DNA of 64,000 bases, taken from Escherichia coli. Lineage in GTDB: Bacteria; Pseudomonadota; Gammaproteobacteria; Enterobacterales; Enterobacteriaceae. The stretch is from the NCBI RefSeq assembly GCF_003334765.1, contig NZ_QOWT01000017.1, one strand, 5' to 3'. Shown one piece after another: positions 4,271-55,206 of the stretch (its first letter is position 1; each line of letters begins with the position of its first letter). Under the pieces are notes generated by a model. That model had not been told where the DNA came from. It saw only the letters and a list, made by a program, of their open reading frames with translations, and searched no databases. The position numbers and the translations under genes are program-made.

Positions 4271-6460
4271 ATGCTTTACAAAGGCGACACCCTGTACCTT
4301 GACTGGCTGGAAGATGGCATTGCCGAACTGGTATTTGATGCCCCAGGTTCAGTTAATAAACTCGACACTGCGACCGTCGCCAGCCTCGGCGAGGCCATCG
4401 GCGTGCTGGAACAGCAATCAGATCTAAAAGGGCTGCTGCTGCGTTCGAACAAAGCAGCCTTTATCGTCGGTGCTGATATCACCGAATTTTTGTCCCTGTT
4501 CCTCGTTCCTGAAGAACAGTTAAGTCAGTGGCTGCACTTTGCCAATAGCGTGTTTAATCGCCTGGAAGATCTGCCGGTGCCGACCATTGCTGCCGTCAAT
4601 GGCTATGCGCTGGGCGGTGGCTGCGAATGCGTGCTGGCGACCGATTATCGTCTGGCGACGCCGGATCTGCGCATCGGTCTGCCGGAAACCAAACTGGGCA
4701 TCATGCCTGGCTTTGGCGGTTCTGTACGTATGCCACGTATGCTGGGCGCTGACAGTGCGCTGGAAATCATTGCCGCCGGTAAAGATGTCGGCGCGGATCA
4801 GGCGCTGAAAATCGGTCTGGTGGATGGCGTAGTCAAAGCAGAAAAACTGGTTGAAGGCGCAAAGGCGGTTTTACGCCAGGCCATTAACGGCGACCTCGAC
4901 TGGAAAGCAAAACGTCAGCCGAAGCTGGAACCACTAAAACTGAGCAAGATTGAAGCCACCATGAGCTTCACCATCGCTAAAGGGATGGTCGCACAAACAG
5001 CGGGGAAACATTATCCGGCCCCCATCACCGCAGTAAAAACCATTGAAGCTGCGGCCCGTTTTGGTCGTGAAGAAGCCTTAAACCTGGAAAACAAAAGTTT
5101 TGTCCCGCTGGCGCATACCAACGAAGCCCGCGCACTGGTCGGCATTTTCCTTAACGATCAATATGTAAAAGGCAAAGCGAAGAAACTCACCAAAGACGTT
5201 GAAAACCCGAAACAGGCCGCGGTGCTGGGTGCAGGCATTATGGGCGGCGGCATCGCTTACCAGTCTGCGTGGAAAGGCGTGCCGGTTGTCATGAAAGATA
5301 TCAACGACAAGTCGTTAACCCTCGGCATGACCGAAGCCGCGAAACTGCTGAACAAGCAGCTTGAGCGCGGCAAGATCGATGGTCTGAAACTGGCTGGCGT
5401 GATCTCCACAATCCACCCAACGCTCGACTACGCCGGATTTGACCGCGTGGATATTGTGGTAGAAGCGGTTGTTGAAAACCCGAAAGTGAAAAAAGCCGTA
5501 CTGGCAGAAACCGAACAAAAAGTACGCCAGGATACCGTGCTGGCGTCTAACACTTCAACCATTCCTATCAGCGAACTGGCCAACGCGCTGGAACGCCCGG
5601 AAAACTTCTGCGGGATGCACTTCTTTAACCCGGTCCACCGAATGCCGTTGGTAGAAATTATTCGCGGCGAGAAAAGCTCCGACGAAACCATCGCGAAAGT
5701 TGTCGCCTGGGCGAGCAAGATGGGCAAGACGCCGATTGTGGTTAACGACTGCCCCGGCTTCTTTGTTAACCGCGTGCTGTTCCCGTATTTCGCCGGTTTC
5801 AGCCAGCTGCTGCGCGACGGCGCGGATTTCCGCAAGATCGACAAAGTGATGGAAAAACAGTTTGGCTGGCCGATGGGCCCGGCATATCTGCTGGACGTTG
5901 TGGGCATTGATACCGCGCATCACGCTCAGGCTGTCATGGCAGCAGGCTTCCCGCAGCGGATGCAGAAAGATTACCGCGATGCCATCGACGCGCTGTTTGA
6001 TGCCAACCGCTTTGGTCAGAAGAACGGCCTCGGTTTCTGGCGTTATAAAGAAGACAGCAAAGGTAAGCCGAAGAAAGAAGAAGACGCCGCCGTTGAAGAC
6101 CTGCTGGCAGAAGTGAGCCAGCCGAAGCGCGATTTCAGCGAAGAAGAGATTATCGCCCGCATGATGATCCCGATGGTCAACGAAGTGGTGCGCTGTCTGG
6201 AGGAAGGCATTATCGCCACTCCGGCGGAAGCGGATATGGCGCTGGTCTACGGCCTGGGCTTCCCTCCGTTCCACGGCGGCGCGTTCCGCTGGCTGGACAC
6301 CCTCGGTAGCGCAAAATACCTCGATATGGCACAGCAATATCAGCACCTCGGCCCGCTGTATGAAGTGCCGGAAGGTCTGCGTAATAAAGCGCGTCATAAC
6401 GAACCGTACTATCCTCCGGTTGAGCCAGCCCGTCCGGTTGGCGACCTGAAAACGGCTTAA
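4271..6460 (+). CDS. fadB: Fatty acid oxidation complex alpha subunit (enoyl-CoA hydratase / 3-hydroxyacyl-CoA dehydrogenase)
   Basis: 729 aa from [12 protein letters not shown] with AGGAG RBS; track ORF starts 42 codons upstream in frame. Confidence 0.95.
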
Positions 6461-18786: not shown

Positions 18787-18854
18787 CGTGATACTCATCA
18801 CCATGACGCAAATGCGTTGCATAAATTTACCCACCAAAAGTGATGCAAATCACA
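18787..18854 (-). promoter_or_regulatory. udp promoter region with two CRP-type sites
   Basis: cGTGA-N6-TCACc at 18787-18802 and aGTGA-N6-TCACA at 18839-18854, about 52 bp apart, upstream of udp. Confidence 0.65.
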
Positions 18855-41444: not shown

Positions 41445-43991
41445 TCACGAAAAATATTGCTGTAATAGCGGCGTATCGTGATCCTGATTGGCAGGCGGCA
41501 TGTTACCGATAGATTTTGTGCGGAACGGAATCACCTGTTCACGACCATCAACCTTCACAATCTGATAGAACTGCGGCAGGTTGAAGTTGATGAAGCTTGA
41601 GCCGTAGGTAAAACGGTCATGCGATGACGAGTAGAAGCGACTGACGTCACGTACCAGCTCCTCTTTGCTGCCTTCGCAGTGGTGATATACCTCAACCCGG
41701 TTGCTTTCGTCGAGAATGTAGATATTAAAGCCATTCTCGTCTTGCGTTTCTTCGAAAAAGAACTGGATGATCCCTTCGCTGGCAAAGCCGTCCACCACCG
41801 CCGGTAATTTGACGTGATTGGTTTCAACCTGCACTGACAGGCCGTGCAGTTTGTTATGCGAAATCGCGCCATAAAACTCGATGGCGTTTTCCAGTTTCTG
41901 TACCGATACATTCAGGCGTTCGAAGAACAACCCCCAGGTTTGACCAGAAACGCGCAGCGCCTTGAAACGCCCGGTTTCCTGGCGGGTGCTGGAAAGACGC
42001 AATTCAATACACTCAGAAACCAGTTGCTGCACGCGAGTACGAATTAAGCCGCGCAGATGCTGGCTATAACAGAAGACTTCCACGCTATCTGGCGGTGCGG
42101 CGTCCTGATGCATTTTGCCGAGAATAGTTTTCAGGGCTTCGATCATCGATTGCTCGCCGTTGAAGTGCAGCGTACGCACTTCGTTCCACGAGTTGCGGTA
42201 CAGCAGGTCAACGCTACCTACCAGGCAATTTTGATTCTCGCCAAAGCTGAAGACATCCAGCTTACGGAAATCGAAATGCACCACCTGATTGCGGAACGCC
42301 GCTGTCGGGTCATATTCCAGGTTAACGATAATCGCCAGATGGCGGATCTCACACGGGCTGTAGAGCGCCTTCGGTGTCGGTGCAGGTAAGCGCAGCGGGA
42401 AATGGTGCGACACGTCGGCGACCATCTCCTGCAACTTAGGCAAATCGACAATGCCGTTACCTTTAATATACAAACGGGTGCGCGAGGTCAGCAGGCCGTT
42501 AAACCATGCCCACGCCACCAGTTTATTCAGGTAACGGTTATATTCCAGCGGCTGATGGCTGATGATCGACTCAATATTTGGCGCGCGGTTATACAGATAC
42601 CAACCTGAACGGTTAGCCCGGCCCGGCGGCACATAAATAAAGGTCAGATTCGGTTCCGAGAGATCGGGTGAAATCTGCGGGTTTACCAGCGTCACTTTAC
42701 CTGGTAATGCTTCAAACGCGGCATACAGCTTACGCGTCAGCACGCCGATATCCTGCGGACTGGCGGAGACGCTAAGGTTATTGCGACGCGCAAAGCGGAT
42801 CAGATTACGGTAGCTCTGCATCATCGCGTCGAGCAACTCGTTGTGCGCCTCACGCACCTGATCAATCTTCCAGTTAGCGCGGTTATCGAGCATTGCCAGA
42901 CGAGCTTCGTCCCAACCCCACTCGCTCACTAACTGGCTCAACACTGCGCGACGCCAGCCTACGCAGGCGCGTTCACGGCTGAGCTTTTCGCACACTTTTA
43001 AATAGAAGCAGCGACGTACTAAATCCAGACGGGTAAAATCTTCAATCGCCGTCAGGTATTCAGTAACACGCTCCAGCATCATGCAGTATGGATCGAGACC
43101 AAACGATACAATCTCGCCGTCGTGCAAACGCTGTTTGATATCTTTCGCCAGCAGACGTGGGTTCGGGTATTCCCAGGAATAGGCTTCCAGCAGCAGTGTT
43201 TTCAGTACCGCTTTGTATGGGGAATCGATACTCTTGTAGAGCTGCCAAAGGCTGGCACCAAAGTACTCTTCAGCAGAAAGCGAGCTTAAGCCACCGAGAT
43301 CCAGCCATTCATTTGGCGTCAGCACGCCCTGCGCGTAAAGCGTCATCACATAGTCGTCGTAATGCTCTTCTTCGTCGCACGGCACCATATTCCACAGAAT
43401 ACGCTTACCGGCGAGACGCACGGCGGTACGATAAAATTCGTCAAGCAGCAGTATATGCTGGGTGGAGCCACAATCTTCGCCCCCCAGGCTGCCGCTTTCA
43501 TTATGACGGAAGCGGTTTTCATCAATCAGGAAGAAGCTGACTTCCACACCCAGCGAGGCGGCCCAGTTTTCCAGCAGGCTACATTTACGTTGTAGCAATT
43601 GGCGCTCTTCGCTATCGAGCCAGGATTGATGACAGACCCAGATATCCAGGTCAGAGGAACAACTTTGCCCTACGGACGAGGTGCTGCCCATGGTGTATAC
43701 ACCAGTAATTGGAAGCTCACCTTTCGGCGGATCCTGTACTGACATTCCACGATACAGTTCAAGCTCGTTCAGGTAGTGGCGTTGAGTTTCATCAGGCGTG
43801 TAAAGGCAAATGCCTTTGGGAACGTTACCATCAAGGTAACCCGGCATTAGCGGATGGTGATAGTGCAACAATGTCGGCAGTAGACTGTAGACCTGTTGGA
43901 ATGCAGGCCCCATAGCAGCAAGCGCGCGATCCACACGCAATTGATTTATGGCATCCAGTCTCTGTTTCAGAGTCTCAATATAGAGGTACAA
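41445..43991 (-). CDS. cyaA: Adenylate cyclase, class I
   Basis: 848-aa ORF; initiation codon is TTG (plus-strand CAA at 43989-43991). Confidence 0.95.
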
Positions 43992-44145
43992 GACGTATCG
44001 CCTGATTTGCTACCCGTCATGACTGTGATTCCGCCAACATCAACGGTAACACGCGGCATTCGGGATATTTCGTATGTCAAAGGTAACCGTTACCACTTTT
44101 CGCGCCTGGTTTTTTTAGTTTCACGACGAAAAAATGGTCTAAAAC

Positions 44146-44161
44146 GTGATCAATTTAACAC
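44146..44161. promoter_or_regulatory. CRP-binding site in the cyaA promoter region
   Basis: GTGATCAATTTAACAC (TGTGA-N6-TCACA class) about 155 bp upstream of the cyaA start. Confidence 0.6.
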
Positions 44162-44377
44162 CTTGCTGATTGACCGTAAAGAAAGATGCGCTACATACAA
44201 GTGTAGCACCGTTTATTCTCTGTAAATTCCTTATTACAACGGCGTGAAACGCCTGTCAGGATCCACTGCCAGACCTCATTTTACGGTTTGCGCAGGCGTC
44301 TACGTTTCACCACAACACTGACATCACTCTGGCAAGGATGTTAGGATGGACCACGGATGATAATGACGGTAACAAGC

Positions 44378-45319
44378 ATGTTAGACAATGTTTTAAGAAT
44401 TGCCACACGCCAAAGCCCACTTGCACTCTGGCAGGCACACTATGTCAAAGACAAGTTGATGGCGAGCCATCCGGGCCTGGTCGTTGAACTGGTACCGATG
44501 GTGACGCGCGGCGATGTGATTCTTGATACGCCGCTGGCGAAAGTAGGCGGAAAAGGCTTATTTGTAAAAGAGCTGGAAGTCGCGCTCCTCGAAAATCGCG
44601 CCGATATCGCCGTACACTCAATGAAAGATGTGCCGGTTGAATTCCCGCAAGGTCTGGGACTGGTCACTATTTGTGAGCGTGAAGATCCTCGCGATGCCTT
44701 TGTGTCCAATAACTATGACAGTCTGGATGCGTTACCGGCAGGCAGTATCGTCGGGACGTCCAGTTTACGTCGCCAGTGCCAACTGGCTGAACGCCGTCCG
44801 GATCTGATTATCCGCTCCCTGCGCGGCAACGTCGGCACTCGCCTGAGCAAACTGGATAACGGCGAATACGATGCCATCATTCTTGCCGTAGCCGGACTAA
44901 AACGTTTAGGTCTGGAGTCACGTATTCGCGCCGCGTTGCCACCCGAGATTTCTCTTCCGGCGGTAGGACAAGGTGCGGTGGGTATTGAATGCCGCCTTGA
45001 TGATTCACGCACTCGCGAGCTGCTTGCCGCGCTGAATCACCACGAAACTGCACTGCGCGTTACCGCAGAACGCGCCATGAATACCCGTCTCGAAGGCGGA
45101 TGTCAGGTGCCAATTGGTAGCTACGCCGAGCTTATTGATGGCGAAATCTGGCTGCGTGCGCTGGTCGGCGCGCCGGACGGTTCGCAGATTATTCGCGGTG
45201 AACGCCGCGGTGCGCCGCAAGATGCCGAACAAATGGGGATTTCGCTGGCAGAAGAGCTACTGAATAACGGCGCGCGCGAGATCCTCGCTGAAGTCTATAA
45301 CGGAGACGCCCCGGCATGA
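44378..45319 (+). CDS. hemC: Porphobilinogen deaminase (hydroxymethylbilane synthase)
   Basis: 313 aa from [20 protein letters not shown]; track ORF extended 7 codons. Confidence 0.95.
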
Positions 45320-54465: not shown

Positions 54466-55206
54466 TCATAGGTTGCCGGTGTAGTGCCAGCGTAAATAAC
54501 GCAGCAAACGAAGCTGACGCTTAATGCGGCTCGGCTGCGAAAGCAGGCGGTAGAGCCACTCCAGCCCCAGCGTTTGCCAGATTTTCGGTGCGCGTTTTAC
54601 GTGACCGGTGAAAACATCGTAAGTCCCGCCAACGCCCATATACAGCGCATCTGGATGTACCAGACGGCAGTCGCGCATGATGATCTCCTGCTTTGGCGAT
54701 CCCATCGCAACGGTGACGATTTGCGCACCGCTGGCATGAATGCGTTCAAACAGCGCCTGACGCTGCTCGGGTTTAAAATAACCATCCTGACTGCCAACGA
54801 TATTCACATTCCACTGGTTGCGCAGTTTAGCTTCAGTTTGCGCCAGCACTTCAGGTTTACCGCCCACAAGAAATACCGGCGTCCCTTCTTTGCCTGCGCG
54901 CGCCATCAGCTCTTCCCAGAGATCGGCACCGGCAACGCGGGAAACCTGCGCCTGCGGGTACTTTTTACGTACTGAACGTACAACGCTGATGCCATCCGCA
55001 TATTTAAATTCGGCAGCGTTAATTAACTCCCTGACCTCGGCGTTATCTTCAATAGTCAGCATTTTTTCAGCATTAATGGCAACCAGCGTTCCCTGCTTAA
55101 GCTGCCCGTCAGCAAACAGATAATCGAGGGCGTGCTGCATATCACGCCAACCAATCAACTGTAAGCCACGCAGCGTATAGGTTGGTGCCGTGGTGTTGTT
55201 ATTCAT
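54466..55206 (-). CDS. wecG: UDP-N-acetyl-D-mannosaminuronic acid transferase (ECA synthesis)
   Basis: 246-aa ORF at the distal end of the wec cluster. Confidence 0.9.

Follow-up and report, generated by a model that had tools for sequence, protein, structure and literature searches.

The known cAMP–CRP operator of cyaA lies over the predicted core promoter and is conserved across Enterobacterales

The analysed DNA (hereafter the window, a single stretch of 64,000 nucleotides) belongs to the E. coli chromosome. A 451-bp query around the site described here is 100% identical in many RefSeq E. coli genomes and is contained in all 5426 complete E. coli genomes, with cyaA and hemC as the annotated genes. 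The two genes diverge (Table 1) from a 386-bp spacer at 43992-44377, taking the hemC start as placed by RefSeq, and this length agrees with that given by a first-pass annotation made from the sequence. The divergent order is kept in 100/100 loci examined, that of the window included. The TTG start codon of cyaA (43989-43991 in the window) is shared by 118 of 119 recovered cyaA loci and is preceded by a CAGGCGA motif that does not vary; the UUG start and the low efficiency of UUG are known (PMC5499595).

Some peculiarities of individual genomes were seen along the way. In E. coli ER1709 (NZ_CP030240.1), RefSeq gives cyaA and hemX as frameshifted pseudogenes, and the promoter region is identical to that of the window. 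In a few E. coli genomes these stretches of chromosome are present twice (5429-5430 places in 5426 genomes), and four E. coli genome searches with segments of the window each returned exactly one match on a plasmid-typed record.

Table 1. Positions of the genes, promoter elements and leader features around the cyaA–hemC spacer
Feature	Coordinates	Strand	Basis or position
cyaA, class I adenylate cyclase, 848 aa, TTG start	41445-43991	-	ORF list and RefSeq annotation of 100% identical DNA
SL3, possible hairpin AGGCG-AUA-CGUCU	43991-44003	-	RNAalifold prediction
Palindrome 1, GGTAAC-G-GTTACC (cyaA sense)	44082-44094	-	In the transcribed leader, ~+52 to +64
SL1, stem-loop of the cyaA 5′ leader, E. 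coli ACCAUUUUUUCGUC...GGCGCGAAAAGUGGU	44092-44138	-	E. coli MFE and centroid fold, covariation
CRP operator, 16-bp core (22-bp site, 44142-44163)	44145-44160	-	Matrix score, ChIP-seq identity, conservation
Predicted cyaA transcription start, G, 7 nt past the −10 hexamer (154-nt leader)	44145	-	−10 spacing only
Inferred extended −10, TGtTAAATT (hexamer TAAATT, 44152-44157), main cyaA promoter	44152-44160	-	Sequence, invariant in 18-genus alignment
Inferred −35 hexamer, TTTACG, 17 bp upstream of the −10	44175-44180	-	CTTTAC invariant in 18 genera and in anchored profile
Palindrome 2, GCTACA-N6-TGTAGC	44190-44207	.	Immediately upstream of the cyaA −35
hemC, divergent neighbour of cyaA	44378-45319	+	ORF list, RefSeq placement

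The first-pass annotation had placed a CRP-type site in the cyaA promoter region at 44146-44161, quoting the 16-mer GTGATCAATTTAACAC. This 16-mer is present at that position, 155 bp from the cyaA TTG start at 43991. A CRP site does lie here, one base further left than proposed: the TGTGA-N6-TCACA core occupies 44145-44160. The GTG...CAC symmetry that had drawn attention has a 10-base gap, while a CRP site has a gap of 8. Both registers were scored with a symmetrised 16-bp CRP matrix. It was trained on the ChIP-seq sites that Haycocks et al. 2015 list in their Table 1 (PMC4287617), 106 in number once the cya entry is excluded. The register 44146-44161 scores -28 bits, corresponding to no CRP site, while 44145-44160 scores 11.24 bits, which ranks fourth in the 64-kb window and falls at the 28th percentile of the 106 in vivo sites. 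By chance, 64 kb would contain 3.2 matches of at least 11.24 bits, and one spacer 0.019.

The operator core reads CGTGATCAATTTAACA (CGTGA-TCAATT-TAACA) on the plus strand and TGTTAAATTGATCACG (TGTTA-AATTGA-TCACG) in the cyaA sense. Its two halves differ in quality, with a strong right half (TCACG and a TTT flank, near consensus) and a weak left half (TGTTA, without the critical G). We take 44145-44160 to be the classic 'cya' or 'ecocya' entry of early CRP motif-finding sets, with the sequence AAGGTGTTAAATTGATCACGTTTT.

Three positions in the window match the matrix better. Those at 18787-18802 and 18839-18854 are tandem sites of the udp/ysgA promoter, and that at 55131-55146 lies inside wecG (rffM). 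The udp pair and the wecG site are themselves published CRP ChIP-seq peaks of E. coli H10407 (PMC4287617) and belonged to the training set of the matrix, so that only the cya score is independent. A search with the bare consensus TGTGA-N6-TCACA, allowing up to 2 mismatches, found no enrichment in the window (12 matches against 23.8 expected) and was dropped as useless for judging significance. A second CRP-like match at 44024-44039 (TGTGATTCCGCCAACA, 8.8 bits) is likely due to chance; conservation is limited to E. coli and E. albertii, and the match sits in a 55-60-nt leader insertion that is present, in the 18-genus alignment, only in some genera (Escherichia, Citrobacter, Enterobacter and Pluralibacter). 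An FNR site was rejected on inspection, as TTGAT-N4-ATCAA fits in one half-site only. From its sequence alone, 44145-44160 would be a plausible, unproven site. This being only suggestive, the case for the operator is carried by its position, its conservation and published ChIP-seq data.

Read in the cyaA sense, the region takes the form cTTTACG-17 bp-TGtTAAATT-GATCAC-G, which we interpret, from spacing and conservation, as the −35 and extended −10 elements of the main cyaA promoter (Table 1). A consensus promoter scan did not list this promoter, owing to its having only 8/12 hexamer matches, and listed only hemC-proximal candidates. The putative extended −10 falls within the weaker, left half-site of the operator, where TGTTA would double as the TG and the first TA of TGtTAAATT. 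This would account for the weakness of that half, since the −10 hexamer has its first T where the G is absent. The CRP core as a whole covers the TG motif, the presumed −10 hexamer, the discriminator and the predicted +1.

To follow the site through the order, we searched a collection of species-representative genomes with a degenerate pattern for CyaA residues 2-10 and obtained 120 loci. All except one, a chance match in a Saprospiraceae genome, are cyaA, from genera across Enterobacterales (119/120; Escherichia to Photorhabdus, Proteus, Arsenophonus, Edwardsiella, Pantoea and Dickeya). The operator was counted in those loci, 111 in all, whose upstream sequence reaches 300 bp or more. It is conserved at the orthologous position in related genomes, with TGTTA[A/G]ATTGATCACG found in 104/111 Enterobacterales cyaA upstream regions; variation is confined to the third base of the −10 hexamer. 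In an alignment of 18 genera with a mean column identity of 41%, the only invariant blocks are CTTTAC, which corresponds to the predicted −35 region, TGTTA-ATTGATCACGTTT, which comprises the operator and its flank, and the ribosome-binding and start-codon region. Within E. coli, a 60-bp core is identical in 5418 of the 5426 genomes; one of the 8 exceptions was looked at and carries a one-base deletion in an A-run outside the operator.

The site is also lost in places. Both Rosenbergiella loci keep CTTTAC and TGtTAGATT and have CCGGC or CCGAC in place of TCACG, and both Tatumella loci have a different promoter, with TGaTAAAAT. cyaA is full length in the two Rosenbergiella loci and in one of the Tatumella loci (L060); the other (L077) leaves its locus after 76 aa. 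The operator is lost or weakened also in Pantoea stewartii and in a Pantoea symbiont, each with a full-length cyaA.

A GATC sequence, the target of Dam methylation, lies at 44148-44151, within the palindrome TGATCA and inside both operator and discriminator. It is found in all 104 loci with the conserved operator.

Binding of CRP at this position in vivo is on record, as CGTGATCAATTTAACA is a high-confidence ChIP-seq peak, entered under hemC/cyaA, of E. coli H10407 (PMC4287617). The same sequence in the cyaA sense, TGTTA-AATTGA-TCACG, was given by Lin et al. 2013 as the upstream CRP box of cyaA in K. pneumoniae; they state, as data not shown, that cyaA mRNA rises more than 16-fold in a crp deletion mutant (PMC3569464). 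cyaA is under negative regulation by Crp in P. mirabilis (PMC5544767), and in Y. pestis RNA polymerase is blocked by CRP bound to a region that overlaps the cyaA −10 (PMC3050693). In all three genera, then, loss of crp is described as de-repressing cyaA (PMC3569464, PMC5544767, PMC3050693). For E. coli, the studies above refer negative control of cya by cAMP–CRP to Aiba 1985 (J Biol Chem 260:3063) or to Mori & Aiba 1985, and citing papers attribute the classical footprinting of the cya CRP site to Aiba 1985. The operator is absent from the supplementary list of PredCRP and is not discussed in the Shimada SELEX paper or in the ChIP-exo paper.

On this evidence, 44145-44160 is very probably the established cAMP–CRP operator of cyaA, an interpretation already known (Aiba 1985). 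The first-pass annotation had proposed a candidate autoregulatory loop in which cAMP–CRP represses cyaA. The literature supports that repression, and the word candidate is what does not hold, the loop being established already.

Could the conserved block instead be the core cyaA promoter only, that is, extended −10, discriminator and start, with an incidental resemblance to a CRP site? The exact coincidence of the left half-site with TGnTAAATT would fit such a reading, as would the moderate matrix score, which chance reaches about 3 times per 64 kb, and the fact that non-consensus positions of the operator are conserved too, as they would be in a promoter. Against this stand the published ChIP-seq occupancy of this very 16-mer (PMC4287617) and the de-repression of cyaA in the crp mutants of three genera. 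Invariance across the order is also unusual for discriminator and start regions. Moreover, the putative promoter does not need the TCACG half, because Rosenbergiella keeps the promoter elements without it. That TCACG is invariant elsewhere argues for a constraint of its own, and CRP binding is the simplest candidate. We consider it extremely improbable that the block is promoter alone.

Alternatively, the main target of the operator could be the divergent hemCDXY operon and not cyaA, in which case it would serve as an upstream activator site of class I type. In favour of this, hemC and cyaA are both named for the peak in the ChIP-seq table (PMC4287617), and the plus strand carries a −10-like TAAATT at 44224-44229, relative to which the operator would lie near −83. 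However, the operator stands at a constant spacing from the cyaA −35 and −10, and its distance from the hemC start codon varies between 163 and 886 bp over 100 loci. The sequence between operator and hemC is poorly conserved in the 18-genus alignment, and CRP control of hemC is not reported in the accessible literature. Action mainly on hemC is thus very unlikely. Owing to the fixed spacing on the cyaA side and the variable distance to hemC, we assign the operator to the cyaA promoter.

As the CRP operator of cyaA, 44145-44160 would be the cAMP–CRP site of the main cyaA promoter, the P2 of older literature. When cAMP rises, a cAMP–CRP dimer would occupy the operator and RNA polymerase would be excluded, presumably by occlusion. 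Less adenylate cyclase mRNA would then be made, resulting in negative feedback on cAMP synthesis. Repression by occlusion is suggested by the geometry, since the operator overlaps the putative −10, the discriminator and the predicted +1; the mechanism and the exact start point are deduced from this arrangement. A start at 44145 would be consistent with the binding of CRP over the cyaA −10 region in Y. pestis (PMC3050693).

The site corresponds to the E. coli cya P2 CRP site as it is cited from Aiba 1985 and Mori & Aiba 1985, with the same locus and the same negative control by cAMP–CRP. We find no substantive difference from it, the footprint limits and the start point given here being predicted ones. 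The boxes of K. pneumoniae (PMC3569464), Y. pestis (Qu et al. 2013; PMC3050693) and P. mirabilis (PMC5544767) are orthologous, with a 16-mer that is identical or a one-base variant. As predicted for E. coli cyaA, the operator overlaps the −10 in these species, and cyaA is de-repressed in crp mutants; the effect of crp loss reported for K. pneumoniae cyaA is larger. Negative autoregulation of crp by cAMP–CRP (Aiba 1983), as summarized in PMC3050693, forms the second arm of the same homeostatic circuit, which likewise lowers the synthesis of its own components. The two arms differ in geometry, with the repressing site of crp placed by the same source ~40 bp downstream of the start and that of cyaA on the −10 and the predicted start.

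Work of Aiba's and Danchin's groups in the 1990s reportedly suggested that E. coli cya is only modestly repressed at the level of transcription, cAMP being down-regulated mostly after translation, through EIIA-Glc. The negative feedback loop may therefore be quantitatively minor in E. coli compared with phosphotransferase-system control of cyclase activity.

Downstream of the predicted start, the transcribed leader varies in length, being ~95-125 nt in most genera and ~130-170 nt in Escherichia, Citrobacter, Enterobacter and their relatives. When all 42 leaders were given to RNAalifold, the variable stems had been misaligned by MAFFT and no structure resulted; a structure was obtained from a subset of equal-length leaders. 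One of its elements, the stem-loop SL1 (Table 1), whose arms include 44097-44102 and 44127-44132 in the window, has arms that are wholly different between genera yet complementary: CUUAUCAG/CUGAUAAG in Symbiopectobacterium, UACCGGCCG/CGGCCGGGUA in Acerihabitans and GUCUACC/GGUAGAC in Shimwellia. In the MAFFT alignment of 23 genera, 7/8 pairs of SL1 show double-sided changes, a level of covariation that none of 500 shuffles reached and that exceeds that of slid controls. A covariance model built from the 23-genus sequences picked out 67 further leaders, that of the window included. Here, 8/8 pairs of SL1 show double changes and 86.8% of cells are paired. Covariation over the whole structure is 0.403 in these 67 leaders, against at most 0.133 in slid controls, in an alignment that was fitted to the model and so favours the structure.

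The predicted hairpin SL3 (AGGCG-ANA-CGUCU, five pairs), at the start codon, would tie up the Shine-Dalgarno-like AGG in one arm and the first U of UUG in the other. SL3 is paired in 100% of cells in the 23 genera and in 99.7% in the 67 leaders, with sequences so nearly invariant that covariation is uninformative. A long-range helix, P0, in which the leader's 5′ end would pair with the stretch preceding the ribosome-binding site, seemed good by eye in some genera and is not claimed here; in a swap test its outcome was equivocal, with the leader's own 5′ end beating a foreign one in 43/76 and 11/30 cases. The fold of the whole E. coli leader is no more stable than that of shuffled sequence (z = +0.85), and a search of 43900-44450 against Rfam (4227 families) gave no match at E-values up to 1.

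The first-pass annotation had also pointed to two short palindromes near the operator. Both are present, 1-2 bases from the approximate positions given, and their number is no more than chance would provide. Perfect inverted repeats with 6-bp arms and gaps of 0-8 occur at a simulated mean of 0.95 per 386 bp, and 26.5% of simulated spacers contain at least two. Palindrome 1 aligns with a weak hairpin of other genera, GGAAAC-NGG-GUUUUU, in which 74-78% of cells are paired, mostly as G-U and A-U; palindrome 1 itself does not form in the E. coli MFE fold. Palindrome 2 is partly conserved in Escherichia, Citrobacter, Enterobacter, Pluralibacter and Pantoea, that is, in Enterobacteriaceae and some Erwiniaceae only, and in the 18-genus alignment it is absent from Yersinia, Proteus and Photorhabdus.

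Together, SL1, the weaker hairpin and SL3 could constitute a cis-acting RNA element that sets the translation of adenylate cyclase or the stability of its mRNA, a proposal that we put forward tentatively and regard as possible rather than probable. We found no description of a cyaA leader structure in the searchable literature, and the covarying stem-loop SL1 may be undescribed so far. It is of interest in that cyaA is known to be translated poorly from its UUG codon. If the proposal is true, the leader element would add a post-transcriptional layer to cAMP homeostasis.

As to the operator itself, the biology is that of textbooks, and the first-pass annotation recovered a real operator from raw sequence without adding new biology to it. 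The comparison across genomes adds the view of an operator that is embedded, letter for letter, in a predicted extended −10, that is nearly invariant across the order and that has natural losses in Rosenbergiella and Tatumella. Through it, cAMP–CRP would limit synthesis of the enzyme that makes cAMP, closing a loop within one of the best-studied bacterial signalling circuits.
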